Virus record (IMG/VR): IMGVR_UViG_3300045988_133913
Location: 1 to 64,000 of that record
DNA: 64,000 bases
Strand: one strand, 5' to 3'
DNA from: a virus
In this document: positions 16,401 to 59,291 of the stretch, in pieces
How the letters are laid out: every line of letters begins with the position of its first letter
Numbering within the stretch: the stretch's first letter is position 1
Translations under genes and position numbers: made by a program
Notes under the pieces: model-generated
What the model saw: the letters and a program-made list of their open reading frames with translations, nothing else
Database searches by the model: none
Told to the model about the DNA's origin: nothing

Positions 16401-19400
16401 GTCCGCGCTGTGCTGGAGCGTATCTGGAACGCGCTGCGCAACGGCATGGCGGCTGTCTCGATGGCGTTGGCGGTTCACCTCGGCTCAAGTATGGTCGTCA
16501 GCCAGCCTGCCGAAGCCGCGAACCTCACTCCGCAGGCAGGCGAGGTGGTTATGAGCAGCGCTGCCAAAGCGTCGCTAGACCACATCATCGACACCGCCGA
16601 CAACGGTGGACGCCCGTTTGTGATTGCCGACAAAAAGGCGGGCAAGCTGTACCTGATGAACGCCGAGGGCAAGGTGGTGGACACCACTCCGGCGCTGTTT
16701 GGCAAGACGCCTTCCGACGCCGCGAAGACGGCGGGTGCTACGGGTGCGGGCAAATACGACCTGACCTACAACCGCGACACCCGTCTGCCATCCGGTTACG
16801 CGGGCAGCGTGCAGTCGTTCGACACCGGAGCAAATGGCGAGCAGTTTGCCATCCACCGTGTTATTGACGTCAAGGGGCAGAACCGTCAGAGCCGACTGGA
16901 TAGCAAGACCGTCCGCGACAACCGCATCACGCTTGGTTGTATCAACGTTCCGGCGGAGTTCTACGACGCCCACCTAGACAACGAGCTAGGCGCGGTGCTG
17001 TACGTGTTGCCGGAAACCGCTAACTGGGGTGGCGACCTGTATGGCAAGACCCCCCGTCAGTCTGCACAGCCGACGCCACAGGCGGTTAAAATCGCAACCG
17101 AGGGTACTTCCCTTACCCCAGAGCAGTTACTGGCTGCAACGCGCTCTCAGGCGGATAATCTGATAGCGAACGTACGTGGCAACATGGACAACGCCAGCTA
17201 CCAGCCTGTGCAGGTAACACCCGAACAGTTACAGGCGGCGACGGAAGCCGGGCGGAAGGTAACGACCCAACCTGTGCAGGCGCAAGCGCCCATCCAGATT
17301 GCGGGCGTCCAGCCGTCCACGCAGACCGCCTATATCAGTCCGGTCATGGTAAACGGTGTATCCGCTAACACCCTTGTCGTGCCGTTCGAGGCGCATACCC
17401 CTGCCGAGATGCAAGCAAATGGCGTGTTCGACACACAGCCTGTAGGTAACAAGACCGAGAGTGGGGATAGCCTGTACACCATCGCGTCGTGGCTGGCTGC
17501 CGCGTTCGCTGCGGGCAAGGTGAATAGCCGTCGCAAGAAGCGTCTGGAGAGCCGCAAGAAAGCCAACGAGGAACGGTTGGCGCGGATTGAAGCGAAGAAC
17601 AATCCAGAGCTGAAGTCTGAACCGGAGGACACTTCCGTCGTTCCAGACGAAGCCGAGGTGGAAACCGCCGTCGCCGACAACCACGACGTGCAGGCAGCCT
17701 TTGCGAAACAAGCCGGTACACACAACCCGCAGACGCCGCTGTCGCAGGCGGTCGCGCAGGCTGTGCGCCAGCAGAACGTGCTGGAGAATAAAGCCGATTG
17801 GATTCATGCATTCGCGATGCGGTATTCCAGCGATGAGGCGCAGTACCAGCAACTGCTCGCCACGATGGGCAATTTCGAGTACAACCTCGGTGGTGTGCTG
17901 ACCGACCGCTCTTACACCCAGAGTGGTGACTTCCGTGACCGCAGGCGCTGGCGCGGCGACCAGACTGATGCAAGCCGTGTGGGGATGTTGCAGGCGTTCA
18001 TGCGCTTCGCAGGCGGGGCGACGGTTGCGTTCGATAATCTGTTGCACCGTGTCGGGTCTGCCGCGTTCGGACACGAAGCCGACAGCGCCATCGCCAGCAA
18101 GATGCTCTCGCAGGTACGCGCCAAGTCGTCCGGGGCGTATGCGCAGCTACACAAGACGCTCATCCACCCACTCGTCATGCAGACCGCCACGCTTGCCAGC
18201 CAGATGCGTCGGGGTCACGGCGAGATTGAAATCGACACCGGCAGAACCGCCACGCTGAACCACATCCTCAACGAAGGCGCGGAGCAGATGTGGAAAGGTG
18301 CAGAGCTGGAAATCGCCAAGATGAAGCTGGACTTGCAGGAGGTGGAAGCGCAAATCCGTTCTACCGCTGCCGGGTCGCAGATTCAGCAGACGTGGACGAG
18401 CAAGCAGTTGCAACTGCTGAAGGACATCGAAGCCGCCCAGACACTCCTAGACCGCCAGCGCGATATGTACTACGGGCGCGAGGAGTGGGACGGCACGACT
18501 GACCTGCCGGGTGGTTACACCGAGGCGCAGGCTAAGACCGAGCTGCAAGCGCTCAAGGATAAATACGGGGAAGACTTCGCCAAGATTGAAGCGCACAGCA
18601 AGGAGCTGGTGCAGACCATTCAGGGCATCCGCAACTTCGCCGCCGCTGCTGGGGTAGTAACCAACGACCAGCTAGCGATGTACAACGAGATGGGCTTCAA
18701 GGAGTACGTACCGCTGTATTCGCCGCAGGAAGATGTATCCAAGACTGACGAAAGCATCAGCATCATGCAGACCTCCCGCATGGACAGACTGCTGGAAGGT
18801 ATCCCGCTGGCACAGGCGAAGTCGATGGGGCTGACCCGCGACCTCTCCCGCTTTAAGCGTAAGGGCGCAACCAGCCCGGCGGAAGACGCTTATACCAACA
18901 TGAAGGTGTATGCGATGAACACCGCAGGACGTGTGGGGCAGCAGGGCTGGTTGCAGGCGGTGCAGCAGCTCTACGAAGGCACAATCGGCAAGCCGTACTC
19001 CGTGGCGGGTAACCTCGGCGAAGAAACGCTAAAAGAGCTGAACAGCCAGCCGGAAGGCAAGCTGCCGGGGCTGATTCGTGTGCGTCCGGGTATGGAGGAT
19101 TACCTGCCTGCCCACTTGCAGACCGCCATCGCAGCACCGGGTGGACGCATCCGCGCTATCCGCGCCAAGGGCTACAACAGCGCAGGCGAGCTGGTGGACT
19201 ACCACTACTACTTCACGGACAAGGCAATCCAGCAAGAGGTTTACTACACCTCGGACACCAGCGAGAGCTTCATGATGCGTATCGGGCGCAACGCCGGGAC
19301 AATTACCCGGTTCGCCGCGCGGATGATGACTACCTTCCGCCCCGTCTGGAACGTGTACAACTGGGTGCGGGACAGCATCGAGCGGATAAGCATTATGATT

Positions 19401-21143
19401 GCCCGCCCGGTCAAGGACAAAAACGGTGACCTCATCAACCGCTGGACGCTTGCCAAGACCTACGCATCGCACCTCGCGCGTCTCGCTTCCAGTCTGGAGG
19501 CGCAGAACGAAATTATGCGCTACCTCTCCACAGGCGAGCTGGTGACAGAACTTCAGCGCACGCTGGATGAAGCCGTCGGGGAAGGTGCAATAAACCTGAT
19601 GACGACCCAGACGGACAAGCACTCCGTGATGAGCGACCTGCGCAAGTCCGACCTTGACCGCCTGCTGGATACCACCTCAAGGATGCTTGGCACGACGGCA
19701 AACAAACTGGGTGTCGGTCAGGGCAAGGCATGGCTAGGGGATATTGCCGAATACTACGTGCAGCGCATGACGGAAGTGCCGCAGGTAACGACGGCGCTGG
19801 CGTCTTATCTGGCGTACCGCGAACTTGGCGTGAACAAGCACGAGCGCGCCAACCGGGTGCGCGACCAGTATGACCCGACCCGCACCCGCAGCGAGATTGT
19901 GCGCGGGCTATCTACCATGTACCCATTCGTGCGTTCCACCTTCTCCGGTCACTACAACCTGATGCGGACGCTGAGTGAATACTGGAATCCCGGCGAGCGT
20001 GGCTTCACCACCCTGTACCTCGCTGGCGGCACTGCTGCCATGATGGCAATCCTTGCCCTCGCCGCAGGCGCTATCGGCGACGACGATGACGGTGTGCCGC
20101 TGGTTGCCCGTATGCCCATCGGTACACTCATGAACGGCATCCCCATCCGCACGCCGGATGGTGGTGTCTGGAGTGCGCCTGTAGGCTTCGGGATGCCCAA
20201 GCTGATGTGGGGGACGGCGGTCAACCTTTACCGCCTCGCCTACGGCGAACAGAGTGCTTCTGACATGAGCCGCTCCATGCTAGGACTGGTGATGGACAAC
20301 ACCTCACCTGTGCAGGTGGCAAGCGGCGCGGCGTTCGACCGCGATGTGGGCGCGGGCGCGGCGCTTAGTTTCGCCCCGCTGCTGGCTGTGCCGTTTGTCG
20401 AGATGATGACAAACACGAAGGCATACACCGGGCAGAAAATTTACAACCGCGAAACGCCCAGAGGCGAACGTGATGCCGACCAAGGTGGGTTCAACATACC
20501 GGAAGCCTACAAGGACACCGCACAGACTCTCACCGGCATGGGTATCGACGTGCGCCCGGAAACGCTCAAGCACCTGCTGGAAACATTCAGCTATGGTCCG
20601 CTCAAAGCGATACCGACCTCCCTGCTGGCGGACAAGTCCGAGAAGTACCTCGGCAACCGCGAGACGAAAGGGGAAGCCGCAGGCGCGCTTGTTACCGCTA
20701 TCGGGATGGACATGGCGTGGTCGCCACACGCGCTGGACGACGAGGCGCGGGTGTACCAGATGCTCGACGATATTTACCCTATCTTGGGGAGATACGGCAT
20801 TACCGAAATCTCGCACGACAAGAGCGAATACAAGCGCTTCGGTATCGAGGGGCGGGAGAACCGCAAGGCACGTCTGCTATACGCCAAGATGGTCGCCGCT
20901 GGCGCACCAGAGTGGGAAGCGTCCTTTGTCCGCGACGCGGTTATGCACAAGACCTCGCGCCAGAAAGCCATCAAGGAGTTCCAAGCAGGGTCGGAAGCCT
21001 ACCTGAAAGCGAAGGCTAACGGGGAGGAAAACGAACAACTGCGTGCAGCCCTTGAAAACCAATGGAATGCCATCGAAAATAGCGACCAGAATTTCCTACG
21101 CCAATACAACGAAGACGCCTATGAGATGCAAGACGACTACTAG
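10449..21143 (+). CDS. giant virion-associated protein (3,564 aa), putative internal/ejection protein, with an embedded YkuD-like L,D-transpeptidase domain
   Basis: Uninterrupted 10.7-kb ORF. It has a G/A-rich N-terminus, a G/P/Q low-complexity linker and acidic tracts. The YkuD-like block spans nt 16557-17015 and includes a GC(I)N catalytic-like motif. Confidence 0.8.
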   Translation: MAKNNSLETPLSMPKLPDLDQDLFGAGAGAIFNQSDDLLNPKAVAPLGAQQGKLSPAAQALASAQREQNDLLNYATEQQAKIQQQEARQQAAFDRQQAAQRRETDAAIRQYQRDKKEREKALKEKAKEQGGVLGAGADGSFVLKPMVETILADKNWKDIKSSFQREDEAQGWLKEKAVQLKEQGIPEDLINNELRVAGALFKQDTDAYTKQRSEDRADPLDAVSWLGKAGRNLYKGTVLWLSPVWNKTIGKTGLTFDTEEFVREQNDAINSIDSTLSDKIHFAQENNEYLTQKRRAQGKDGLVAGFTGGIADMWKADNMLYTMLDSAAYIPYSAAVGASAGAFASRVGAATRLTPAIEGITARVNAAAAAPGASLATRIGAKAASHLLSSEVAGGMATTGFFAATDAAGGAYDAVYNQDEDTFRQTYIKANGEENWNNLVQYYGSAGKARAALAEQAAVSAGNSAFINTALLGAAGLETTLLKANKFGLQTFAGKRLATAGANSVSELLEEGLTQYSQNVGAQPATGVDLLEGVPEAAAIGFVAGGSMAGGTQVLGALGKGVKNYVAPEFDAARLDPTQYVHQNQLDYDSYRQVVGREMDNIARTGRRAKWHETDIGSAQQMAYDTIIDDPSKWESFTPDQRAQMQEYLKQAYNINTNPYAQVERQTLTDIWENGDTHVLNAWLQSEEKGIGEDIRNAFRVKHGVELENVPDGVRAYSEALANAIDYQIAAPVLRDTNEQWKAMRDYVKTQVETNPTLTREQQKGIDAILANYLDAGRRRLTDEQVAAAQSQPTGQPNEPANTGAGQGAPTENTQPVAGESGAAPAAGAGSTGGETQSVGQPDAAPAGGVNPQGAGVDNAQQGNQPGGGTDAPAQTVQPAGGAAQAPASGAQPGVTAPVGNAGQTAAGQRAAGQTSATGQPAQPINPGAAPQAGSSGGVGAATPERNPNGGSNQAATQAVGVTGAYSPQADLRDASHAWAQLSKAQKSALAKIGISTPAQLLDILKNDDTVAEAGQRLARTGRVRSMTMKSVQDALKAARDYITSPEWVFNKLTQDQLGLSANEASIPAAVAALQASDEITARKISQLAKGAAEIYGLEDASKEDKIAYAAKLLLDIAQLAKTSPQLLDVAMRLKGAPESWFQDDVDKLLKNDIWATLQSAPGIFEQAGVDFSQSRPNVTQSQQNLWSARAVLFTLKQNIKAGDARSKAVQAGLDKAAKRITDMGGEKGRLSLLFSMLEADSRGEDLTGFLENYYIGSRASADAIAGVIRAYQDAKTYMASPDFQNSLRADNWLRQADKSVYVQAIRDYVRNNYAAFNQMLIQDAEVASGKSARTRVAGTNFETQAVNTDILADVLADVVHNTARLGREYAGEIARSYAGRDENGNRVIKPSAVKRFLEQADTIAANLRQQYLDGKLAQQSTQPEDESEQLVQQGDDLSRLMEEFNAGQQPDADAVMGDLDDAVRGIPAQPRNGEKQIKNGGFDSPEAAEDALSPELFQHPETVEELDTLLRSIAETTGLDPLLVGEYIAREWLSQSEEDYADASTDELLDMVYDAANDIWIYVGEQNATQQIADTKRLEGPRSITADGRRITRQSQDPTGSLARALQPNLSGGAYAQLARPSQPAPVRLAIAPVEEIVAEFGGQEFSLAEIIENTENQRGDRSPTLGELAPEDNNAPRPVIELTVNGVKHRGRLFRWRDRKNGRNRRHVVFVHDGDAFGMRGWDDKWIDFGNAVTRKRVDSINQNDGIRIEVLADQSENQEQTNDKTEKRTQRTGRSETEDENNSGIVGDVRDADVAARGSDNTDARADESEQDEGSGQSDESERGSGAAEGRLETPAPVDVPQGLDYTPEQVAEIDPASLTADERAALNRQDDTSEFIANALYDIEGALEDFGGEDSAALRSGLAKMAALLADPAAPRRATPTTVTEQAAGRKEVADIITDEERDILDAYLEDVGNTEQSAEEFAEEAIADNQFEDSSLPKKVRAVLERIWNALRNGMAAVSMALAVHLGSSMVVSQPAEAANLTPQAGEVVMSSAAKASLDHIIDTADNGGRPFVIADKKAGKLYLMNAEGKVVDTTPALFGKTPSDAAKTAGATGAGKYDLTYNRDTRLPSGYAGSVQSFDTGANGEQFAIHRVIDVKGQNRQSRLDSKTVRDNRITLGCINVPAEFYDAHLDNELGAVLYVLPETANWGGDLYGKTPRQSAQPTPQAVKIATEGTSLTPEQLLAATRSQADNLIANVRGNMDNASYQPVQVTPEQLQAATEAGRKVTTQPVQAQAPIQIAGVQPSTQTAYISPVMVNGVSANTLVVPFEAHTPAEMQANGVFDTQPVGNKTESGDSLYTIASWLAAAFAAGKVNSRRKKRLESRKKANEERLARIEAKNNPELKSEPEDTSVVPDEAEVETAVADNHDVQAAFAKQAGTHNPQTPLSQAVAQAVRQQNVLENKADWIHAFAMRYSSDEAQYQQLLATMGNFEYNLGGVLTDRSYTQSGDFRDRRRWRGDQTDASRVGMLQAFMRFAGGATVAFDNLLHRVGSAAFGHEADSAIASKMLSQVRAKSSGAYAQLHKTLIHPLVMQTATLASQMRRGHGEIEIDTGRTATLNHILNEGAEQMWKGAELEIAKMKLDLQEVEAQIRSTAAGSQIQQTWTSKQLQLLKDIEAAQTLLDRQRDMYYGREEWDGTTDLPGGYTEAQAKTELQALKDKYGEDFAKIEAHSKELVQTIQGIRNFAAAAGVVTNDQLAMYNEMGFKEYVPLYSPQEDVSKTDESISIMQTSRMDRLLEGIPLAQAKSMGLTRDLSRFKRKGATSPAEDAYTNMKVYAMNTAGRVGQQGWLQAVQQLYEGTIGKPYSVAGNLGEETLKELNSQPEGKLPGLIRVRPGMEDYLPAHLQTAIAAPGGRIRAIRAKGYNSAGELVDYHYYFTDKAIQQEVYYTSDTSESFMMRIGRNAGTITRFAARMMTTFRPVWNVYNWVRDSIERISIMIARPVKDKNGDLINRWTLAKTYASHLARLASSLEAQNEIMRYLSTGELVTELQRTLDEAVGEGAINLMTTQTDKHSVMSDLRKSDLDRLLDTTSRMLGTTANKLGVGQGKAWLGDIAEYYVQRMTEVPQVTTALASYLAYRELGVNKHERANRVRDQYDPTRTRSEIVRGLSTMYPFVRSTFSGHYNLMRTLSEYWNPGERGFTTLYLAGGTAAMMAILALAAGAIGDDDDGVPLVARMPIGTLMNGIPIRTPDGGVWSAPVGFGMPKLMWGTAVNLYRLAYGEQSASDMSRSMLGLVMDNTSPVQVASGAAFDRDVGAGAALSFAPLLAVPFVEMMTNTKAYTGQKIYNRETPRGERDADQGGFNIPEAYKDTAQTLTGMGIDVRPETLKHLLETFSYGPLKAIPTSLLADKSEKYLGNRETKGEAAGALVTAIGMDMAWSPHALDDEARVYQMLDDIYPILGRYGITEISHDKSEYKRFGIEGRENRKARLLYAKMVAAGAPEWEASFVRDAVMHKTSRQKAIKEFQAGSEAYLKAKANGEENEQLRAALENQWNAIENSDQNFLRQYNEDAYEMQDDY

Positions 21144-49231: not shown

Positions 49232-49259
49232 GGGTTTCTCCGGTTGTGGGGGGTGTGGG

Positions 49260-49763
49260 TTAGCCTTGCGCGGCAATAGCGCTGGCTACTTTGGCGGCGT
49301 AACGGGCAAGGCTCTCGCCTACCCCGCCGAACATATCGCCGCTGTCCTCGTGCAGTTGACAAACTAGCCTGCGGTTGCTATGGCCGGGTCTAGCAAGGCA
49401 GTAATTCAGGCAGCGCTGGTAGTATTCCTCGCCTTCAGGAGAGCGCGCGGCTACCATTTCCGCCGCGTGTTGTGCGTCGTAGTACGCCGCCGCGCGCTCC
49501 AGTAATTCCTCAAACAGTATCCGCGCGCGGTTACGCTTGCGTATTGCCCGTTCGTATTCCTTGCGATATTTCGTACGGTCAAGGAAGGCCACGCCGTAAT
49601 TGTAGTGGTTTGCAATCTCTCGCAGCAGGTCAGCACGGCGCGCTTCTTGCGGGCGCGCGTCCGTACTCCATTTCCGGTGTAGTTGGTATGCCTGTTCGGC
49701 GTAGGCAAGGGCGTCGGCAAAGGTTGTTTTTATGCCGTAGACGCTAGTGGTGAGGATGTGCAT
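49260..49763 (-). CDS. hypothetical protein
   Basis: Start moved to ATG 49763, which has AGGAG 6 nt upstream. Confidence 0.45.
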   Translation of the reverse strand: MHILTTSVYGIKTTFADALAYAEQAYQLHRKWSTDARPQEARRADLLREIANHYNYGVAFLDRTKYRKEYERAIRKRNRARILFEELLERAAAYYDAQHAAEMVAARSPEGEEYYQRCLNYCLARPGHSNRRLVCQLHEDSGDMFGGVGESLARYAAKVASAIAAQG

Positions 49764-49792
49764 TTTTATACTCCTATTTTTGTATGGGTGGG

Positions 49793-50293
49793 TTATTCCT
49801 GTCCGGTTTGGGCAAGGATTTCCTCGCACTTGGCGAGGGCTTGGGCAAACACTTCGCCACGTGTCATGCCCTTCAAAATGGGGTCATGGGCGGCAGGTGC
49901 GTAGGCGTTGAAGGCGACGGCGTCATCGCGCAGGGCGTCGCGCAGGTATTCCACGTCTTCTAGCTGGTCGGTGCGGTAGTCATCTTCCAGCAGCCGTATG
50001 GCAAGTTCTGGCAAAATCCCTTCCTGTCCATAGTACGGGCTGAAGTACCACTTGCACAGCCCATGCTCGTCGTCTAAGACAAGCGTGTCGTATCCATTGG
50101 TAAGAAAGACGCTCCCGCTTTGTTGATTAAAGTCAATATAGACGCCTACGTCGTCAAACGATTCAGGTAGGGCGTTGCTGATGCCCTCCCCCGCGTCTGC
50201 GTAAGCGCGTAGCAGATTGGCTGCTAGGTCAAGCTCATATGCGCCGAACCTGTCCAAGGTTGTCATGGGGTATAGGGTGTTTTGTTTTTTCAT
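49793..50293 (-). CDS. acidic hypothetical protein
   Basis: 166 aa, D/E-rich, early position. Confidence 0.45.
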   Translation of the reverse strand: MKKQNTLYPMTTLDRFGAYELDLAANLLRAYADAGEGISNALPESFDDVGVYIDFNQQSGSVFLTNGYDTLVLDDEHGLCKWYFSPYYGQEGILPELAIRLLEDDYRTDQLEDVEYLRDALRDDAVAFNAYAPAAHDPILKGMTRGEVFAQALAKCEEILAQTGQE

Positions 50294-50368
50294 GTTTTAT
50301 CCTTGTGTTGTGGATTAGGGTTGTGGCGGTGCGTAGCACCGCCGGGGGTTTATTGTGTGGGTGGGTTA

Positions 50369-51130
50369 TCATTCATATTCGAGTATTTCACCAACGTTTT
50401 CTTCCAGCCACTCTCTGGCTAATTCAGCCAGTTTTTTGCGGTCGGTTTCTGAATACGGCAGGAGTTTTTCGTCTTTGACAATATCTGCGCAGATTTTATT
50501 GATGACTTCTTCTTTAACGTCTTTATCCCAGTAAATATAGCAGTCGTCCATGTATTCATCTACATATACTCCCCATTCATCTACGCCACCAATGGTAATC
50601 GTGAACTTACCAGAAATGGGAGAATCATAGAAAATGTTCGTTATATAGGCGCGGTCTATATATTCGTGTGCCTGTTTAGCGACGTCATTATAAAAATAAA
50701 CGTCGATACAATAGCCTTGTGAATAACCGAATGCCCTAAATCCGTCTAACTCGTTTAATGCGTCTGCATTTTCTAACATTTTGACATAATCTTTCGCTGT
50801 TACGTCTGAAAGGTCGGCTAGCATATCTGAAAGCTCATCCCCCGCAACAAAGCCAGCTTCGTAGGGGTCATAACGCATCCATTCTTCGGTAAGGGCGCGC
50901 GGGTTTTCCTCAAATTCAGCAATCTGTTCGGCGCTGTAATGTTTTTTTGTTTTCGCACCTTCACTAGCGAAAACGATTATAGCTGATAAGTCGTGCCGGG
51001 TATTATAAACCCCTACCATAGGGGTATCGTTCATAAAGTCGTCGAAGTAATCGCTAGCCAAGTTGATGTCATAGCGAAAACTATGGCTGAATTCTGCGTC
51101 AATAATGGTTTTGAAGGGTAAGTTTTTCAT
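50369..51130 (-). CDS. acidic hypothetical protein
   Basis: 253 aa, D/E/Y-rich. Confidence 0.45.
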   Translation of the reverse strand: MKNLPFKTIIDAEFSHSFRYDINLASDYFDDFMNDTPMVGVYNTRHDLSAIIVFASEGAKTKKHYSAEQIAEFEENPRALTEEWMRYDPYEAGFVAGDELSDMLADLSDVTAKDYVKMLENADALNELDGFRAFGYSQGYCIDVYFYNDVAKQAHEYIDRAYITNIFYDSPISGKFTITIGGVDEWGVYVDEYMDDCYIYWDKDVKEEVINKICADIVKDEKLLPYSETDRKKLAELAREWLEENVGEILEYE

Positions 51131-51183
51131 GGTTTTTATCCTTGTTTGTGGGTAGCGTGTTAGTCTTGTATCGGTTGCCCGTG

Positions 51184-51711
51184 CTACGCCATCATGTCGC
51201 AGCGGTCGGCAAGTCTGCCGCTTGTGGCGGCATCCACCATCGCGCTCACCGCGTGGCGCACCGCGTAGTCAGCGTCGTCGCGGATGTCGCAATAGTCGCG
51301 GCGACGGTGTGGGTACTTGGCGAGCTTGTCGCGCAAGGCGCACGTCGCGGCAACCGCGCAATCGCGTAGGACGCGGCGCGCGCCGGGGTAGCTACCGGCA
51401 CTATACGCGCACGCCAGCGCAAGCGTCTCAAGCGGCAGACGGCACAGCTCCAGCCATGCCGCGTCATAGGCGCGGGTTGCCAACAAGGAAGCGTCTGGCG
51501 CGTCTGCGGCGGTAAGGTCTGCGACGCGCCACAGGTTCGCCTGTGCGTCGAGGTCGTCGGCGAGGTCGCCAATTTCGCTGGCGAGGTTGTCGGCGACGTC
51601 AGCCGCCAGCAGGTTATGCGGGCGCGGCAGACGGTCGAGGTGCGCCGGGTTAAGGCTCTTTTGCAGAGCATCAAGGTCTGCGATGGTTTTGGGTTGGGTT
51701 TGATTGCTCAT
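51184..51711 (-). CDS. hypothetical protein, first gene of the leftward early operon
   Basis: AAGGAG RBS. Ala/Asp/Leu-rich. Confidence 0.45.
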   Translation of the reverse strand: MSNQTQPKTIADLDALQKSLNPAHLDRLPRPHNLLAADVADNLASEIGDLADDLDAQANLWRVADLTAADAPDASLLATRAYDAAWLELCRLPLETLALACAYSAGSYPGARRVLRDCAVAATCALRDKLAKYPHRRRDYCDIRDDADYAVRHAVSAMVDAATSGRLADRCDMMA

Positions 51712-51752
51712 TTTTGACTCCTTTTATACTTTTGTTAGGGGTTGATGCGTTT

Positions 51753-51794
51753 GTATCGGATAGCACCCGGAATAGTATGGATGCTATCCGATAC
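51753..51794. repeat. perfect 13-bp inverted repeat GTATCGGATAGCA-N16-TGCTATCCGATAC
   Basis: Read directly. A second 9-bp inverted repeat (AAGCTAGCC-N19-GGCTAGCTT) follows at 51795-51831. Confidence 0.7.
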
Positions 51795-51872
51795 AAGCTA
51801 GCCGTGGTTTGTGGTTTAGGGTGGCTAGCTTGCATCGCGTTGTGTCGTCTGATACTTATATAAGTACAGGCT

Positions 51873-51887
51873 GGCGACGTTGTCGCC
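51873..51887. promoter_or_regulatory. GC-stem hairpin with GTT loop (GGCGAC-GTT-GTCGCC)
   Basis: 6-bp stem with a 3-nt loop. It has the same architecture as the hairpin at 52736-52750 (TGCCGC-GTT-GCGGCA). Confidence 0.4.
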
Positions 51888-52735
51888 GTTAGTGTTTTAT
51901 GCGTCGTCTTTGTTGGCGCATTTCAGACATTTACAATGGCTTCCGCAGTCTTTTTCAGCAGTTACATTCACCATTTTCAGTCTATTCCGCGTGCCGGTAC
52001 GTTTCGTTTTGTGTCCTTGCCAGCATCCGCGTCATGTAGTGGTTCGCGCGCTATCGTATGCACGCGGCTACATTCTTTACCGTTTCCCGCTTGCTACTTT
52101 GCTAAGGTAGCGCGCTTGTTACGTTTTCCCCTATTGTTAAAGATTGCGCCTTGCACCCGGATGAGGCTAGCGCGAGGTTAATTCCTCAATGTATCCGATT
52201 TTTCGTGCAGCGGATAGTAGCTGCCGTGCATATTGTTTAGGTGTTAGCACTTGCCTTTGCAAGGTATGGCACGTTGTGTTGTTGTGCATTGCCTTGCTTG
52301 ATGCCAGCGGCTCGCCGTAAGGCTCGCTCGCTGTATGGGGCGCATTATAGCGGTTTGTGGGTGGCTTGTCAATAGGCAATCTTGTTTTTTGTTGATTGCT
52401 TATTGCGTGATGATAGGTTGTTGGCAACCATATCAGCATCGCGCCGCCGTCATATTGTTACCGCTATAACGTCGTCCTGTTTGATTACGGTAATGCCTTT
52501 GTCGTGCCAACGTTGAAAACTATTTAGATAACATACAGATATTGGAAAACGTTGAAAGAGTAGAAAAGGATTGGCGACGGATTAGCAGCGCAAAATTGTC
52601 GGCGAGCGGGAAATTTTTGGCGGATTGTTGTCCTTATATATTGTGCGCAGACGGCACCAACTTTTGCACGCGGTTTTGTTGTCGCCGTTTTTGTACGCTA
52701 ACTTTTTCGAGCCGTCGTTGTGTTTTTGCTTTTGT

Positions 52736-52750
52736 TGCCGCGTTGCGGCA
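52736..52750. promoter_or_regulatory. GC-stem hairpin with GTT loop (TGCCGC-GTT-GCGGCA)
   Basis: Second member of the 6-bp-stem, GTT-loop pair. Confidence 0.4.
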
Positions 52751-53029
52751 GTTTGCGACGGATTTTGTCAAGATTAAGATTTTGAAATGTTAAATGCTGA
52801 ATTTTGTTAGGTAGTAGGATTCATGCGTAGTTAAGATGGATTTTGAAAAAAAATTGAATTCAATACACAAAATCTTGAATATCTTAAATCGGAAAATTAA
52901 GGTATTGATTTTGTTCACATTTAATAGCCGAATCTTGAAAAGGGGGGTTTTTTGTTGAATCAATATTTTATTTGTTGATTATATATAATCCCGAAAAAAA
53001 CCTGTTTGTTTTGACTATATTAAGATTGG

Positions 53030-53047
53030 CGATGTTAATTAACATCG
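53030..53047. repeat. 18-bp perfect palindrome CGATGTTAATTAACATCG
   Basis: Read directly. Its 12-bp core TGTTAATTAACA recurs at 53521-53532. Confidence 0.7.
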
Positions 53048-53363
53048 GGATTTTGGGGGTTCGGCGAAAGAGAGAGGGGTTTTGTGATTGTGGGATTATT
53101 TGCACGGGCGAAAAATGATGGCGGGGTTTTTGGGATTGCACGGCGCGCAAAAAGATATTACCAAAACATGGACAACTCATTAAAACCAAAAAGGTCGAAA
53201 AAAGGAAAAAAGGGGGTATATATATATATATTCAATATATTATTTTTTTTTTTTTTTTTAGCCGATTTTTTCCTCTCCCTCCTGCTGCTGTTGAATGCCG
53301 CCGCCGCCCGCAACCCCCTGTTTTTTCTAGGGTTTTTTATTTCCAGTCAATATAAATCCACAT

Positions 53364-53626
53364 AACATTATTATTGTACAATGTTGTAAACATTATTTGT
53401 TCAACATTTAAATCTTAACAAAAAAACCATCAACATTTTCAACACGTCTCGAAATTTATTTGCAATCCTCGAAATTCCGCTTCACGTCTACGCTTCGCGC
53501 CCCTCAAAACATTTCTGACGTGTTAATTAACATTTCCCGATTTTTTATTGACAACATTAACCTCAAATTATGTTGGTAACATTATTCGTTATTCCAGATA
53601 ATCCAATAATTCAGCGCCGCAAATGT
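53364..53626. repeat. array of about 10 AACATT / AATGTT hexamers (iteron-like)
   Basis: Copies at roughly 53364, 53381 (rc), 53389, 53403, 53432, 53507, 53528, 53553, 53577 and 53621 (rc), all within 263 bp. Confidence 0.6.
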
Positions 53627-53678
53627 TATTTTTCGCCGCGCTTTTCCTCGCCATTTCCGCCTGCCGTTTTACGTCATG

Positions 53679-53707
53679 TTCAATACTTATTAACACCCTA
53701 GTATAAT
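53679..53707 (+). promoter_or_regulatory. sigma70-like promoter candidate (TTCAAT-17-TATAAT)
   Basis: Perfect -10 TATAAT with a 17-nt spacer to TTCAAT. Confidence 0.3.
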
Positions 53708-54152
53708 TTAACGCTAATCAATCTTTGCATCTTGATAACCACGCCGCCACCTATCATCCCAAACCGAGATGATAACGTACCGTGAATTTCGTGGGGCGAG
53801 GGCGTCGAAGGGGCGGAGTTGACGGGGGGACCCCGGGACTTGGACACGTGGAGTCGAGGGGGGCTGGGTGAATATATACCCACCCCCGCAGACCACCTGC
53901 CCCTCCCAGAAATCTAAGGGAAACAATAATCATTCCCACCAAGCCGCCAATGCCCCCGGGAAGCCTACGTCCATTACGCTTCTTGTGGCTTTCTAATATG
54001 CTCGGGTGCAGTCTACGTAGCCCATGTCGCCACCAAGCGTCCTGTCCGCTCTCTACAGCCCGGTGCAGCCCACACCCTACCACCCACCCCTCCCCCTGCA
54101 ATCCGCCCAAGAAAAAGCCCCCCATCGCTGGAGGGCTGCCAAAAAATTTTCC

Positions 54153-54628
54153 TCACGAGCCGGGTGCAGTCTCCGCCGCTTCCTCCCCGGCTTCCTCACC
54201 AGCGTTACCCTTACGACCCTTCATCGCCTTCAGGAGGTCAATAGACTTCGCCATCACTCCCACCTGCTGTTCCAACCGTCCCTGCCCTTCTTTCAGCGCA
54301 GCAACGTCTGCAATCAATGCGTCGAGGTCGATGTTCTCTCCATCCACCATAGCTTCCGCGTAGCTGTCAGCGAAAGCCTGTGCAGTCAGAACCACACCCA
54401 TCCCCGTGCCGTCAAAGACCACGTAGTGTCCAAGCGGCAACGTCACTTCCTTCCAGTCGTATTTGACAACGACGACAGGACCTCCAGCACGCTCGGAACG
54501 CTCGCACGTGCCGCCTGCCGCTTCAACATCCGCTGAAAGCTCCGCAAAGTTATCGCCACCAGACTCATCGCCCAGCGCCACAAACTTGAAGGCTACAATC
54601 GGTTTTTCTTTCTTGTATGCGTACATAA
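54153..54628 (-). CDS. hypothetical protein, lone minus-strand gene inside the control region
   Basis: ATG (MYAYKKEK) with GGAG 7 nt upstream. 158 aa, Gly/Ala/Glu-rich. Confidence 0.45.
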
Positions 54629-54846
54629 TACACTCCACTTACGCCCGCCAGCCCGTGCAGCCCCATGCCGCCAGTCGCAAGCGTAGCGTGTAAGGCATTC
54701 TAAGGGTTATACATTTTTACCTCAACCCTTCCATCAGCCCAAACCGTCCTTTACAATCCCCCACGCCAGCCGCAGCCTGCGATAGCACAAGCCATTGCGG
54801 AACCCCCATACCCTGCGGCTGGCGTCCCCACACTATCTCCGTTACA

Positions 54847-54885
54847 ATCTCCCATAAACCGTTAAGTGTATGGGAGATTTTTTCT
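54847..54885 (+). terminator. strong intrinsic terminator directly upstream of the terminase genes
   Basis: 10-bp perfect stem ATCTCCCATA-N12-TATGGGAGAT. It is followed by TTTTT. Confidence 0.6.
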
Positions 54886-55614
54886 GTGTCCTCACAAACC
54901 ACCCCCACCAGTTCGCTAAACCTCAACGAGCAGGCAGCAAGCGCGTTGCGGTCTGCCACCACCCCTGCCTCAACTCCTCCCGCCGCCAAAACCACCCTCG
55001 CACCAGTCGTTCCAGACGACGCCCCGCCTCCGGTGGAGTTCACCCTGTGGGAAGTGCTGGCATCCGACCTCGCTATCGGTATGACACCTACCCCCGCCAT
55101 ACTGAAAGCCTACGATATTAGCAAGGAACAACTTGACCTCCTGCAAGCCAACCCCTTCTTCCAGAAGCTGCTGCAAGCCAAGCAGGACGAAATCGCCGAG
55201 AGTTCCCGCAACCCGTCGGAAGCCGCCTTCGTGCAGAAAATGCGCTTTATCGCGGACAAGGCAACCCCCCGCCTGCTCGCGCGCCTGACCGACAACGAGA
55301 CGACCAACAAGGACTTCGCCACACTCCTCCAGATGGTTGTGCGGCTTGCCCGGCGTGAACCCCCGCCGCCTCGGGACGACGCCCCGCTAGCCCCCGCGCT
55401 CACAGGCCCTACCGTTACGTTTAACATCGTCGGTGTGCCGGGGTTAGACCATCTGGCGGCAGCTCAGGTAGTGCAGGCCCCACCCATCCCGCATACCCCC
55501 TCCCCTCCGCTCTCTCACCCGACGTCCACGCCGCCAACCCCCGACACGACCCTGCCCTCACCCGTCGGCCCTGAACCTTCCGCTGACGACCTGTTGCAGA
55601 TGGGGGTGCTGTGA
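54886..55614 (+). CDS. putative small terminase subunit (start uncertain)
   Basis: ORF translationally coupled to TerL (TGATG overlap). The start is a GTG right after the terminator with no SD. An internal Met is possible. The N-terminus is low-complexity. Confidence 0.3.
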   Translation: MSSQTTPTSSLNLNEQAASALRSATTPASTPPAAKTTLAPVVPDDAPPPVEFTLWEVLASDLAIGMTPTPAILKAYDISKEQLDLLQANPFFQKLLQAKQDEIAESSRNPSEAAFVQKMRFIADKATPRLLARLTDNETTNKDFATLLQMVVRLARREPPPPRDDAPLAPALTGPTVTFNIVGVPGLDHLAAAQVVQAPPIPHTPSPPLSHPTSTPPTPDTTLPSPVGPEPSADDLLQMGVL

Positions 55615-57095
55615 TGGCGACCACCTACCGCGCATACCCTACGATGGAGCGATTCCACGCGGACTACGGCAAATATTTCAACCGCTTCGTCGCGGGACCC
55701 CCGGGAAGCGGCAAGTCGGTCGGAAGCGCTTTGGAGCTAATCGGTATCGGGCTGCGGCAAGAGCCCACGGCAGAAGGAATACGCCCGACGAAATTCGCCA
55801 TCATCCGCTCTACCTACGGCGAGCTGGAGCGTACCACGCTGGAAACGCTTCGCCAGTGGCTGCCGCCCCAGTACACCAAAATCAACAGGAGCAAGCCGAT
55901 AACGGTTCACTGCCGCCTGCCGCTGCCAGACCATACCATCGCCGATATGCGATTCGAGTTGATAGCCATCGAGTCCTACTTCGACCTCGGCAAGCTCGAC
56001 TCGTATGAGGCGACCGCTATCTGGTTAAACGAGATGACCGGGCTGCCGAAAGAGCTGGTGGGTAAGGCGGGCGAACGGGTCGGGCGTTATCCGCCTGCGA
56101 ATATGTGGGACGATGGCAAGAACCATTGCACGCTCTACTGTGTCATCGGCGACTACAACTACCCGCCCAAGGACCACTGGCTGGTCGAGTACCTCCACTC
56201 CGGCACGCTGCCACCTAACACCATGCTCTACGAGCAGCCGCCTGCGCTTATCGAGACGGTCAATCCCGACACAGGCGAGACAACCTACGCGGTAAACCCC
56301 CACGCCGAGAACCTGACTAACCTCGACGGTGGGCAGAAATATCTGAACGACCTTGCGACCTACGAGCGCATGGGGCTGACCGATATGATTCAGACCCGCC
56401 TCTTGTGCCGCTATGGTCGTGCAGGCGGCGACGGCAAGAAGGTCTTTACCAACTTCGACAAGGACTTCCACGTGGCGGACAACCCGCTTGAACCCGCCAA
56501 GCTCACCGACTGCCTCATCAGCATCGACACGTCAGGTATCCACCCCTGCGCGCTCATCTGGCAGCACGTGCGGTCAAAGTGGCAGATAGCCGATGGGATT
56601 TACGGCGAGGAGATGGGACTGGAGGAGTTCATCGACGACGTGCTGACACCGCTTCTTACTCTGCGCTACGCCGGATGCAACACGCTCTGTGTCTGCGACC
56701 CGGCAAACGCCCGCGACGCGCGCACCGCCATCACGCCTATCGACCTGCTGCGGGAAAAAGGCTACGACGCTATACCTGCGCCCACTAACCGCTTCAAGGA
56801 GCGCCTGCAAGCCAGCGAGATAATGCTGAACCGTCGCGAGAAGGGAAGCCTCGTGATTAGCCCCTCGCTTGGCGAACTGGTGGATGCGATGGACGGCGGG
56901 TATCAGTACCGCAAGCTCAAAGTCGGGGGGCTGAACACGGTCTTCTCCGCGCAGCCCGAGAAGAACAAATACAGCCACTGGGCAGATGCCTTCCAGTACG
57001 GCGCGCTGCATATCACCTCAAGTGTGCTGTCAGATGATGCGCTGGACAAAGCCAGACGGCTCGCGGCGGCGAGCTTCGCCCGCGCGCGGGCATGA
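55614..57095 (+). CDS. terL: terminase large subunit
   Basis: Walker A GPPGSGKS near the N-terminus. The size (about 493 aa) and its position before the portal fit TerL. Confidence 0.75.
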   Translation: MATTYRAYPTMERFHADYGKYFNRFVAGPPGSGKSVGSALELIGIGLRQEPTAEGIRPTKFAIIRSTYGELERTTLETLRQWLPPQYTKINRSKPITVHCRLPLPDHTIADMRFELIAIESYFDLGKLDSYEATAIWLNEMTGLPKELVGKAGERVGRYPPANMWDDGKNHCTLYCVIGDYNYPPKDHWLVEYLHSGTLPPNTMLYEQPPALIETVNPDTGETTYAVNPHAENLTNLDGGQKYLNDLATYERMGLTDMIQTRLLCRYGRAGGDGKKVFTNFDKDFHVADNPLEPAKLTDCLISIDTSGIHPCALIWQHVRSKWQIADGIYGEEMGLEEFIDDVLTPLLTLRYAGCNTLCVCDPANARDARTAITPIDLLREKGYDAIPAPTNRFKERLQASEIMLNRREKGSLVISPSLGELVDAMDGGYQYRKLKVGGLNTVFSAQPEKNKYSHWADAFQYGALHITSSVLSDDALDKARRLAAASFARARA

Positions 57096-57182: not shown

Positions 57183-59291
57183 ATGGCAGTCATCCAGCAC
57201 ATCGACGATAACCAAGACCTCAAGGCGTCTCGCATTGAGAAGACCATCACCCCGCATGAGGAGCTAGGGCTTGAGGTCATGCGCCAGTTCCGCCATGCCC
57301 GCACAGTCCGCGCCAGCAAACAGGTCGGCGAGTACACGCTCGACAAGCTGCTGCATGAGTGCTACAAGGCGCGGGACGACCAGTTGCTTTGCGACGAGGC
57401 GGAGCTGCGCGAGAAGTTCCCGCCGTGGGCAGCGATGCCTGTTAGCATCGTGGCGTTTAAGGTCAATATTCTGGTGAGCCTTATCCGTGAGACGCTGGTC
57501 GATATTAGCCGTGCGCCGTTTATCGTTGATCCTACCCCAGAGCCTGAGATTCCACAGGATGAAATCCGCGCCCGGATGCAGGCAATTTACGACGAGATTA
57601 CGTCCATCAGCGCGCAGGTGGTGCAGGAGCAGCAGGCGTTCGTAGCCGGCGCAGTTGAGGGCGGCGCTGCGCCCTCCGACGCGGTAGCTTCATCCGAACT
57701 ACCAGGGTTGCCTCCAGAAGCCGTCATGGAGCTTCTCAAGCAGGCTAAGGTGGAGATGCGCCAGCAGGTAATCGACCACGCCAAGCAGCAGGCGCGGTTA
57801 CTGGAACAGGAGCTGTACGACAAGACGACCGAGGGCGGCTATCGCCGTGCGGTGATGGAGTTCGCGGATGACTTCGCGACTTACCCTTATGCCTGTATGC
57901 ACGGACCGTTTCCGACGGTGCGCACCGAGAGTGTGTGGAAGGATAACAAGTTCACCGAGGAGACCCGGGTGTCGTGGGTATTCGAGCGGGTGTCGCCGTT
58001 TGATTTTTACTGGACGGAAGACAGTACCAATACCCAAGACGGGACGGCGGTGTTTATCCGTAAGATGGTCGGTTATGACTACCTCTACGACTGCCGGGAA
58101 CTCGCCAAGTCCGACGATAAGAGCGGCTACCGCTTCGACGTCATCGACGAGCTTATCGAGGATGCGCAGGAAGGTCATGTGCCGCGGGAGTGGCTGCTGT
58201 GGTTCGACCAGAGCCCAGAGACCCGCCAGACGTCGCTGGAGTGGTCGCGCGGGCAGAGTGCGGAAATCCTTATCCGCTATGGGCGGTTCAGCGGGTATGA
58301 GCTGAAAGAAATGGGTTTTTTGGATTTGGAGGAAAAGAAGCTCTACGAGACGAAAATCATCATGTGCGGCGGGCAGGTTATCTACTGCCAGATTAACAAC
58401 AACCCTAGTCAGTACAAGCGCCCGGTGTTTACCGCCAGCTTCGAGAGCCGCAACAATTCCATCGTCGGCTGCGGGCTGGCACAGAAACTCCTCTCGCTGG
58501 ACAAGGCATACCGCGCCACGATGAACCTCGCGCTGTACAACCTGTCGCTGGCGAGCGAACCTGTGACCGAGGTGGAGGTTAATCGCATCTTGCAGTACGT
58601 GCCGGATGACTGGATTGAAGACCCGAAAATCGCGCCCGGTATGGTGGTGGTTGCCGACGGCGACCGCATGGGCAACGGCTCACGGGCTATCAAGTTCACC
58701 CAGATTCCGACAACCACCGAGGCGGCGCTGCGTCTTGCCAACTACATCTTCGAGCAGGCGCACGTTATCAGTAACATCCCCGCCGCCTTGCATGGGCAGC
58801 CTGTGGGTAGCGGGGCTAACCGCACGGTGCGTGGGCTGCTGACGCTTCAGGGCAATACGCTGAAACCCATTCAGTCAGCGCTCATGAATCTGGACTTGGG
58901 CGTTATCGAGCCGATGGTGACGCTGCTGTATATGCTGCTGGTTATGTACGACGAGGACTTCGAGTACACAGGAGACGCGAAGATTGTTGCTAAGGGCGCG
59001 GCGAGTATGGTCGAGCGCGAGATGGACAAGCAGACGGCGATGGAGAATATGCAGATTCTGGGGCAGCTTGGCGAGCTGATACCAGAACATATCCGCCTGC
59101 CCGTCATCGAGAACCTGCTGCGCACTGCCGACATCCTGAAGCCGGGTCAGACGCTTTCGCCGCCTGTGATGCAGCAGATAGCCTCGCAGTTAGGGCAGAT
59201 GCAACAAGGCGCACCAGACGGCATACCGGGACAAGCCCCGCAGCCGCAAGGTGCGCCTGTACCACAGGAGCAAACGCTCCCGCAGACGTGA
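57183..59291 (+). CDS. portal (head-to-tail connector) protein
   Basis: 702-aa ORF immediately downstream of TerL. AGGA RBS. Q/P-rich C-terminal tail. Confidence 0.55.
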   Translation: MAVIQHIDDNQDLKASRIEKTITPHEELGLEVMRQFRHARTVRASKQVGEYTLDKLLHECYKARDDQLLCDEAELREKFPPWAAMPVSIVAFKVNILVSLIRETLVDISRAPFIVDPTPEPEIPQDEIRARMQAIYDEITSISAQVVQEQQAFVAGAVEGGAAPSDAVASSELPGLPPEAVMELLKQAKVEMRQQVIDHAKQQARLLEQELYDKTTEGGYRRAVMEFADDFATYPYACMHGPFPTVRTESVWKDNKFTEETRVSWVFERVSPFDFYWTEDSTNTQDGTAVFIRKMVGYDYLYDCRELAKSDDKSGYRFDVIDELIEDAQEGHVPREWLLWFDQSPETRQTSLEWSRGQSAEILIRYGRFSGYELKEMGFLDLEEKKLYETKIIMCGGQVIYCQINNNPSQYKRPVFTASFESRNNSIVGCGLAQKLLSLDKAYRATMNLALYNLSLASEPVTEVEVNRILQYVPDDWIEDPKIAPGMVVVADGDRMGNGSRAIKFTQIPTTTEAALRLANYIFEQAHVISNIPAALHGQPVGSGANRTVRGLLTLQGNTLKPIQSALMNLDLGVIEPMVTLLYMLLVMYDEDFEYTGDAKIVAKGAASMVEREMDKQTAMENMQILGQLGELIPEHIRLPVIENLLRTADILKPGQTLSPPVMQQIASQLGQMQQGAPDGIPGQAPQPQGAPVPQEQTLPQT

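Follow-up and report, generated by a model that had tools for sequence, protein, structure and literature searches.

We analyzed a 64-kb stretch of viral DNA (positions 1 to 64,000 of IMG/VR record IMGVR_UViG_3300045988_133913; from here on, the window) that represents most of one podophage-like genome, and found that the 2.4 kb without genes between its leftward early operon and its packaging genes is a real, conserved, composite control region of several elements. The reading that we favor, with moderate confidence, has three parts: a leader RNA with a proposed role in antitermination on the left, an origin-like center and an array of DNA-level modules in the right quarter. The left quarter is a transcribed, structured RNA supported by covariation, and the case for an RNA made from the minus strand is good, if not complete. 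In this part, our results contradict a preliminary description made from the sequence alone, in which the whole region was read as DNA signals (an origin or genome terminus together with divergent early and late control). About a quarter of the region (51712-52336) is instead a covarying structured RNA, and a noncoding RNA was the outcome that the description itself had named as speaking against it. Both the features that it listed and its interpretation of them hold up in part.

We found no credible coding sequence between 51712 and ~54104, in agreement with the preliminary description. Open frames in this interval reach at most 70 to 123 amino acids, none of them matches a Pfam or PHROGs family at an E value of ≤0.05, and no frame stays open throughout the four relatives compared. 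Over DNA that is ~82% identical, the longest frame that is shared reaches 48% amino acid identity. The disruptions of frames comprise a 55-nt indel and the loss of a start codon in the leader, changes in the length of a T-run and an indel of ~98 columns in the right arm. Conserved frame, protein constraint and family match are thus all lacking in the region. Open frames do exist and a few short ones are still open in the closest relatives, but given these lost starts and frame-breaking indels it is extremely improbable that the region encodes small proteins overlooked by gene callers. The reported flanks were confirmed, with an early gene starting at 51711 on the minus strand and the terminase genes running rightward from 54886 (TerS start, 54886; TerL start, 55611). 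The G-rich repeats and duplicated motifs that had been listed as signals (TTGTCGCCGTT twice, AATCTTGAA, GATTTTGAAA and the G-rich repeats) are present where they had been reported, but most are no commoner than in shuffled sequences (maximum 8-mer count of 3 to 4, observed equal to the shuffled null).

The early control expected in this region is borne out by a consensus sigma-70 promoter for the leftward early operon. It lies on the minus strand at 52372-52344, with TTGACA at 52372-52367, a 17-nt spacer and TATAAT at 52349-52344 (12/12 consensus positions); an A-rich stretch is found upstream, and the likely transcription start is the A at 52336. Both hexamers are kept in six metagenomic relatives, given here by L numbers (L005, L025, L027, L021, L011, and L024), L035 has TTGACA-16-TATACT, and L011 and L042 have tandem promoters. 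An untranslated structured 5' leader RNA of ~625 nt (51712-52336, minus strand) separates this promoter from the start codon at 51711. The gene downstream of this leader, and its target, is the first early gene (51184-51711, minus strand), which codes for 175 amino acids and has the ribosome-binding site AAAGGAG. Homologues of this gene, recognizable by the motif LDRLPRPH of the window family, follow the same leader in L025, L027, L011, and L024; in L005, L021, and L035, the first gene behind the leader is an unrelated one. Since the same leader precedes three unrelated first genes, gene-specific translational control does not account for it. The first early genes (49253-51711, and the equivalents in L005, L021, and L035) are mosaic, and for this reason the first early protein, used as a search probe, finds just one weak locus. 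Upstream of the promoter, a nearly invariant block of ~85 nt (52578-52660, alignment A7), in which we found no consensus promoter, may serve as an operator or as a weak additional promoter directed leftward.

The minimum free energy (MFE) of the leader is -200 kcal/mol (z score, -6.6), and RNAalifold predicts 131 pairs from seven leader sequences, 39 of them compensatory. When L035 is added (eight leaders: window, L005, L021, L025, L027, L011, L024, and L035), the consensus structure has 102 pairs, with 93.5% of cells paired, in helices of 4 to 16 pairs and loops of 4 to 22 nt. Pairs in which both partners have changed number 39, against 18.8 ± 2.5 in shuffles (0/500 reaching the observed count) and 6 to 10 when the partners are slid. 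Kinship among the eight sequences makes the shuffle counts overstate the significance, a problem that does not affect the slid controls or the swaps of whole helix arms (helices 6, 7, 9, 12, 15, and 17). The leader thus has compensatory pairs beyond the controls, in eight related sequences only, as expected of a structured RNA in general.

The most conserved part is a core (51956-52128, minus strand) with three covarying hairpins; it also contains a stem of 10 bp whose 22-nt loop, CAAGGACACAAAACGAAACGUA, is almost invariant. The mean column identity of the core (alignment A5) is 87%, and the covariance model R1 scores 203 bits at the window core and 158 to 196 bits in L029, L031, and L035. The nucleotide identity of the core with L011 is ~80%, that of TerL being 75%, so that the leader is better conserved between clades than the terminase gene. 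Rfam 15 gave no match at the gathering score over the window; between 51500 and 54900 the only matches were eukaryotic snoRNAs and miRNAs at chance level (E values of 0.07 to 4.5), and no tRNA or tmRNA was found. A candidate new structured RNA without a described family is thus the main new result of this analysis. Near the 5' end of the leader (52180-52300), the segments GCAAGG, CCUUGC, and GCAAG could form two mutually exclusive pairings; this part, together with a 45-nt hairpin just past the start site, is missing from L011, L024, and L035.

A boxA-like element, AAUCUUUAACAA (52134-52145, minus strand), is located ~190 nt past the predicted start on the transcribed strand. It lies directly 3' of a hairpin, is single-stranded in both the consensus and the MFE folds and has covarying hairpins on either side. 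The alleles of the hairpin behind it do not go together with those of the first early gene. Its core, UCUUUAACAA, is exact in half of the eight leaders (window, L021, L011, and L035), and an exact GAUCUUUAACAA is also found inside the unalignable ~1.08-kb leader of L042. In this distant relative (TerL identity, 66%), positions 1490-2610 hold two tandem TTGACA-17-TATAAT promoters followed by the GC-rich leader, which is missed by model R1.

The leader is rich in A and C (35% A, 26% C, 16% U) and has no U-runs, and no terminator-like site was detected on the minus strand from the promoter to the first gene when the region was scanned. A long, untranslated, A/C-rich RNA of this kind would be a natural substrate for Rho unless folded or protected, and boxA has been documented to shield long noncoding transcripts from Rho, both in rRNA and in CRISPR arrays (PMC7665894). 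Because the leader is independent of the gene behind it, has a Rho-prone composition and exposes an unpaired boxA-like element, we propose that it confers resistance to termination via Nus factors. In such a model, the host sigma-70 RNA polymerase would start at the promoter at 52372-52344 and make the leader (52336-51712), which would act in cis on the polymerase transcribing it. The unpaired UCUUUAACAA would recruit the host NusB/NusE complex, and the dense folding would shield the A/C-rich RNA from Rho, so that the polymerase could get past the untranslated stretch and continue through the ~27-kb leftward early/replication operon without terminating early. A bolder and more tentative suggestion is that the leader, as the first RNA to appear in infection, represents a new class of large phage RNA, either a cis-acting processive antiterminator, far exceeding put or EAR in size, that combines boxA with a tertiary fold of its own or a stable ribonucleoprotein or decoy that commandeers a host factor.

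The center of the region has a very different anatomy. The AT-rich island of the preliminary description is confirmed (the GC content is 26% at 52800-52999 and falls to 33% at 53200-53599 from the ~57% of the window as a whole), and so is its (TA)7 (53217-53230); its T20 is a T17 (53243-53259) preceded by TTA. Both tracts end an almost invariant A-rich block of 112 nt (53148-53259, alignment A7) that is nearly 100% identical among five relatives otherwise differing by 13 to 18%. The combination of (TA)n and poly-T is kept in L005 (T18), L035 (T13), L011 (T18), and L036 (T11), the length of the T-run varying among strains (T13-T19).

To the right of this block we found a repeat absent from the earlier list, AACATT, which together with its complement AATGTT occurs 11 times in the region (2.7 expected). 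Ten of these copies lie within the 441 nt of 53260-53700, where 0.83 are expected (0/500 shuffles), and the enrichment recurs in L035 (0/500) and L005 (1/500). Eight copies in the plus orientation form an array at 53364-53627, four of them spaced by 21 to 25 nt (53508-53578). The sites are mirrored, being mostly AACATT to the right of the T-run and mostly AATGTT to the left of it in the window, L005, L035, and L011. In L011, an 85-nt inverted repeat with two AACATT-type sites flanks the T-run and is significant (46 versus 21 ± 2.1). Further to the left are plus-strand G-tract/T-tract repeats (GGGATTTTGGGGG, GGGGTTTTG, and GGGGTTTTTGGG, 53048-53140) whose G-runs are kept in close relatives, with a G-tract cluster at the matching position of L011. 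More distant relatives have motif arrays of their own confined to their own gaps (AAATCTGAAAT in L042, AACTAAAAG in L036); the seven copies of AAATCTGAAAT in L042 occur only within the gene-free gap. A large palindrome formed by the left arm and the reversed right arm was considered and dropped, being significant only in L011.

A clustered short site adjacent to an AT-rich element is the arrangement found in iteron origins, and we infer from this anatomy that the center (~52760-53630) is a replication origin. The (TA)7-T17 core inside the invariant block would be the unwinding element, and the opposed AACATT arrays would suit the head-to-head loading of the primase-helicase with prim-pol and DUF927 domains (P4-alpha-like) that the phage encodes. 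The origin proposed in the preliminary description is in this way supported by the AT-rich core, the (TA)n/poly-T kept across clades, the invariant block, the mirrored arrays, the L011 repeat and the separate arrays of distant relatives, but not by DnaA boxes. The GC skew, which had been put forward as a check, adds to this support in that it does flip at (TA)7-T17 (from +0.38 through -0.17 to -0.43 across 53200-53400), but with a sign opposite to that of a bacterial origin.

Several of our observations weigh against this composite reading. For the leader, the fold energies are equal on both strands (-124.4 versus -124.9), so that the strand call rests on the promoter and on a modest excess of G.U pairs (among the 73 strand-neutral pairs, predicted on both strands, 20 are G.U and 6 are A.C on the minus-strand RNA). 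The core is not detected by model R1 in relatives with TerL identities of ≤73% (L036 and L040-43). Compared with the E. coli rrn boxA, UGCUCUUUAACAA, the element AAUCUUUAACAA matches at 10/13 positions, the ten 3' bases being exact, and this consensus may not be that of the host; four of the eight leaders (L005, L025, L027, and L024) have the variants UCUAUAAC, UCUAUAAAAAC, and UCUCUAAC; and the 13-mer with ≤3 mismatches is found 14 times in the window, where 13.5 matches are expected. The invariant unpaired blocks of the leader (the 22-nt loop, CGGGAAACGGUAAA, GACUGCGGAAGC, and GCCAACAAAGACGAC) suggest further partners beyond the antitermination model. As for the center, DnaA boxes are not enriched, the skew flips from plus to minus, and the weak 24-nt inverted repeat of the window (left copy 52763-52786, partner 53400-53423, with AAGATT and AATGTT motifs) has 19/24 matches and is not significant (28 versus 23 ± 2.5). 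The AACATT arrays could also be operators of a regulator rather than initiator sites, and every function assigned here is an inference.

The unpaired blocks, together with the size and dense structure of the leader, are closer to what is seen in large functional RNAs than in a simple leader, which raises the alternative of one or more stable RNAs cut from the early transcript that would act in trans, for example as a decoy or sponge for a host factor or defence system, or as a scaffold for an early phage protein. The strong promoter would make this RNA the first and most abundant of the phage, its conservation does not depend on the gene that follows and it matches no known family. We take this as a serious rival, if a rather unlikely one, since there is no terminator or obvious processing site before the first gene, the RNA has no U-runs, and a boxA-like element is found again in leaders of the family that are otherwise unrelated, pointing to a role in transcription. 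The symmetry of the two strands (the covariation is mostly strand-symmetric, like the energies) would also be expected if the hairpins acted as DNA, either as promoters for a virion RNA polymerase of the N4 type or as single-stranded DNA priming signals, and the window does code for a virion-type protein of 3,564 amino acids that matches the N4 polymerase in size. However, no RNA polymerase family match was found in this protein, and an N4-like virion polymerase was rejected on this ground; its only matches are to a PHROG of unknown function and, weakly, to YkuD (L,D-transpeptidase) at residues 2057-2169 (open reading frame at 10449-21143, in the structural block). The helices of 4 to 16 pairs with loops of 4 to 22 nt are also longer and larger than the 5- to 7-bp stems with 3-nt loops of N4 hairpin promoters, they lie directly downstream of a conserved 12/12 sigma-70 promoter, and G.U prevails over A.C on the transcribed strand. 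A DNA role of the hairpins is therefore very improbable, and the cis-acting leader RNA remains our preferred interpretation of the left quarter.

In the center, an alternative to an origin is a set of operators, comprising the AACATT arrays and the other repeats, for a regulator that would time early transcription. The sites lie 400 to 1,250 nt upstream of the early promoter, ten sites in 441 nt would suit cooperative binding of a repressor, clade-specific arrays would fit coevolution with any DNA-binding protein, and at a classical origin the skew would flip the other way. On the other hand, most of the sites are far from any supported promoter, the sole rightward -10 candidate (53702-53707) reads TCTAAT in all five relatives, and a (TA)n/poly-T melting core between opposed arrays is typical of origins, so that we regard operators as possible but doubtful. 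It is also conceivable, although we would not bet on it, that the genome has its physical ends, in the form of a direct terminal repeat or a pac/cleavage site, in the center, the right arm or both, the DNA entering the cell with the early-promoter end first. The operons point away from the region and converge, as in linear genomes of the N4 and T7 types; TerS and TerL adjoin it; the block at 53148-53259 is invariant and the right arm has tandem modules in variable number; and at least six independent contigs end within ~20 nt of the T-run, from both sides, with one contig of 66,282 nt lacking the entire region. The T-run in fact coincides with the commonest assembly break. Against such ends, eight contigs read through the region (L005, 38 kb; L011, L035, L036, and L040-43, 62 to 67 kb), other breaks occur near 51.4, 51.85, 52.3-52.4, and 53.87-54.08 kb, and contigs arriving from the two sides overlap by the T-run alone, as would result from k-mer collapse at a homopolymer of variable length (T13-T19). 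The nearest isolates, the CHOED group, offer no guidance, their genome ends being undetermined (PMC4110762). Real ends account for the breaks no better than strain mosaicism together with a length-variable homopolymer. Physical ends may, even so, lie in or beside the center, a reading that is compatible with the leader RNA.

Whatever their cause, these breaks affect the size of the assembled genomes. The complete-looking contigs of 66.3 kb, 3300045988_141189 (L002/L020/L030) and 3300007091_000006 (L006/L032), lack all or ~470 nt of the region. Genome sizes in this family are therefore underestimated by up to 2.4 kb.

The right quarter (53700-54104) is an array of G- and C-tract modules at the DNA level, the sequence being G-rich from ~53700 and C-rich thereafter. 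The G-tract and then C-tract modules span 53793-54123 and contain 4 of the 11 G4-type motifs of the window. Since this quarter sits next to the packaging genes, it is possibly a recognition site for the terminase. Relatives with the extra ~98 columns have an additional C-rich module, and the copy number varies between strains: the module at 53879-54013 (CCCCGCAGACCAC ... AACAAGAATCATTCCCA ... CCCGGTGCAG) occurs once in the window and twice in L003, L005, L006, L008, and L025. The heptamer GGTGCAG is found in five copies, all in one orientation, at 54003-54660. It was dropped as a phage-specific signal, as was ATATACCC, since such motifs are enriched only marginally or have their other copies within genes. 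We also dropped a structured RNA in the right arm, where there are 0 to 1 compensatory pairs on either strand, and a rightward promoter at 53679-53707 (TTCAAT-17-TATAAT), whose -10 hexamer is TCTAAT in all five relatives.

On the right, the noncoding region in fact ends at an intrinsic terminator on the minus strand (54137-54116), with a 9-pair stem that includes 6 G-C pairs and a U-run. This terminator belongs to a conserved gene of unknown function (54153-54632, minus strand, 159 amino acids) that is transcribed towards the region and was overlooked in the preliminary description. L011 has a homologous open reading frame with an equivalent terminator hairpin behind it, and L035, L036, and L040-43 have predicted genes in the corresponding position; an exact look-up of the protein returned no record. 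The gene has its own promoter region, and in distant relatives its slot holds extra minus-strand genes, among them a DNA methylase (L042) and a dNMP kinase (L043). This gene and its terminator separate the late operon from the gene-free region, so that the early and late operons do not diverge from within it; of the divergent early and late control previously assigned to the region, only the early part is found there, and the point of divergence from the terminase operon is at 54640-54885. Just upstream of TerS there is a TACAAT (54843-54848) and a 10-bp hairpin with a T6 run (54847-54878) that covers the ribosome-binding site GGGAGA and ends 3 nt before the GTG start codon. This promoter-then-terminator layout (54843-54885) is reminiscent of an attenuator of the late operon or of a target of antitermination, and it is shared with L011 and L038 but not with L035, L036, and L040-43.

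The plus strand of the window codes for the putative small terminase subunit TerS (54886-55614, starting with the GTG at 54886), TerL (55611-57095), the portal (57183-59291), an internal virion protein and the 3,564-amino-acid protein, and the minus strand for a DNA polymerase, a helicase and a primase-helicase of 1,016 amino acids with prim-pol and DUF927 domains. Early and late operons converge at ~24 kb, both pointing away from the control region. The long ends of TerS are of low complexity, rich in Pro, Thr, and Ala, which accounts for the strong negative GC skew at 54-56 kb. No DNA matches were found among 50,697 isolated phages in either near or distant search modes, and TerL and portal have just 23 to 34% identity to those of any isolate. 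TerL relatives at 61 to 90% identity are found on contigs of 60 to 67 kb, some from human microbiome samples, and by these matches the window phage belongs to a large uncultured family. The layout of the control region is kept across this family of podophage-like metagenome contigs of 60 to 67 kb. A conserved 20-mer of the region had no match among the genomes of 185,579 species. Searches of IMG/VR and of metagenomes with this sequence or an overlapping conserved 20/21-mer yielded no more than four contigs each. DNA-uptake sequences, sought as a clue to the host, were not found.

Large conserved structured RNAs are rare, and this leader shows unusually clear covariation from just eight sequences. 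Its place in the genome is the most privileged of all, since it is the first RNA to be made and has a perfect host promoter. If it does act in antitermination, the hijacking of boxA and Nus factors would extend from lambdoid prophages to uncultured podophages of the virulent type, and it would explain how an untranslated RNA of 0.6 to 1.1 kb is tolerated despite Rho, which is a barrier against phages. If it is a new class of RNA, analogous long leaders with boxA would be a family-wide strategy of these phages known from metagenomes, some of them from human microbiome samples. The center would provide a concrete origin candidate, with AACATT arrays, a (TA)n/poly-T core and a prim-pol/DUF927 initiator, for a family without a cultured member. 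The region is also where metagenomic assemblies of the family break, and "complete" contigs of 66 kb may miss up to 2.4 kb.

The closest parallels to the leader are those of the rrn operons and the nut sites of lambda, which also combine a strong promoter, an untranslated leader, an unpaired UCUUUAACAA next to a hairpin and a very long transcription unit downstream, and resistance to Rho would be expected in both cases. In those systems, however, boxA lies within the first ~50 nt, whereas here it is ~190 nt (window) to ~430 nt (L042) into the transcript, embedded in a structure of ~600 nt with many other conserved parts. Moreover, we identified no N-like protein and no boxB consensus, and the boxA match is 10/13, with variants in four relatives. 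The put RNAs of HK022 and the EAR element of Bacillus are cis-acting antiterminator RNAs of ~70 to 120 nt with two or three helices. The leader described here is likewise a structured RNA just past a promoter that could act on its own polymerase, but it is ~5 to 8 times longer and has no sequence or family match to them, and we do not claim homology. CRISPR arrays protected by boxA (PMC7665894) resemble it in being long, untranslated, noncoding transcripts, ideal as Rho substrates, with boxA near the 5' end; they differ in that here a structured leader precedes protein genes in a phage of the virulent type, its activity being predicted.

The center can be compared to the ori and crr sites of P4, served by the alpha primase-helicase, and to the origin of lambda, in which arrays of short sites also flank an AT-rich, easily melted core; as in P4, the phage encodes a primase-helicase of the P4-alpha type, with prim-pol and DUF927 domains. 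Unlike those origins, however, AACATT is unrelated to known iterons, no DnaA boxes accompany it and the arrays lie in a gene-free region of 2.4 kb rather than inside the initiator gene. The left ends of T7 and N4 are similar to the whole region in being noncoding starts of an early operon, with strong host-type promoters, arrays of short repeats and early and late blocks that converge. They measure <1 kb, against 2.4 kb here, and carry a terminal repeat, whereas none has been demonstrated in this region and no phage RNA polymerase was detected in the window. To our knowledge, no long covarying leader RNA structure has been described for T7 or N4. Each kind of element in this region is known from other systems; this RNA, and leaders of 0.6 to 1.1 kb placed behind consensus promoters across a whole family of phages, are new forms of them.

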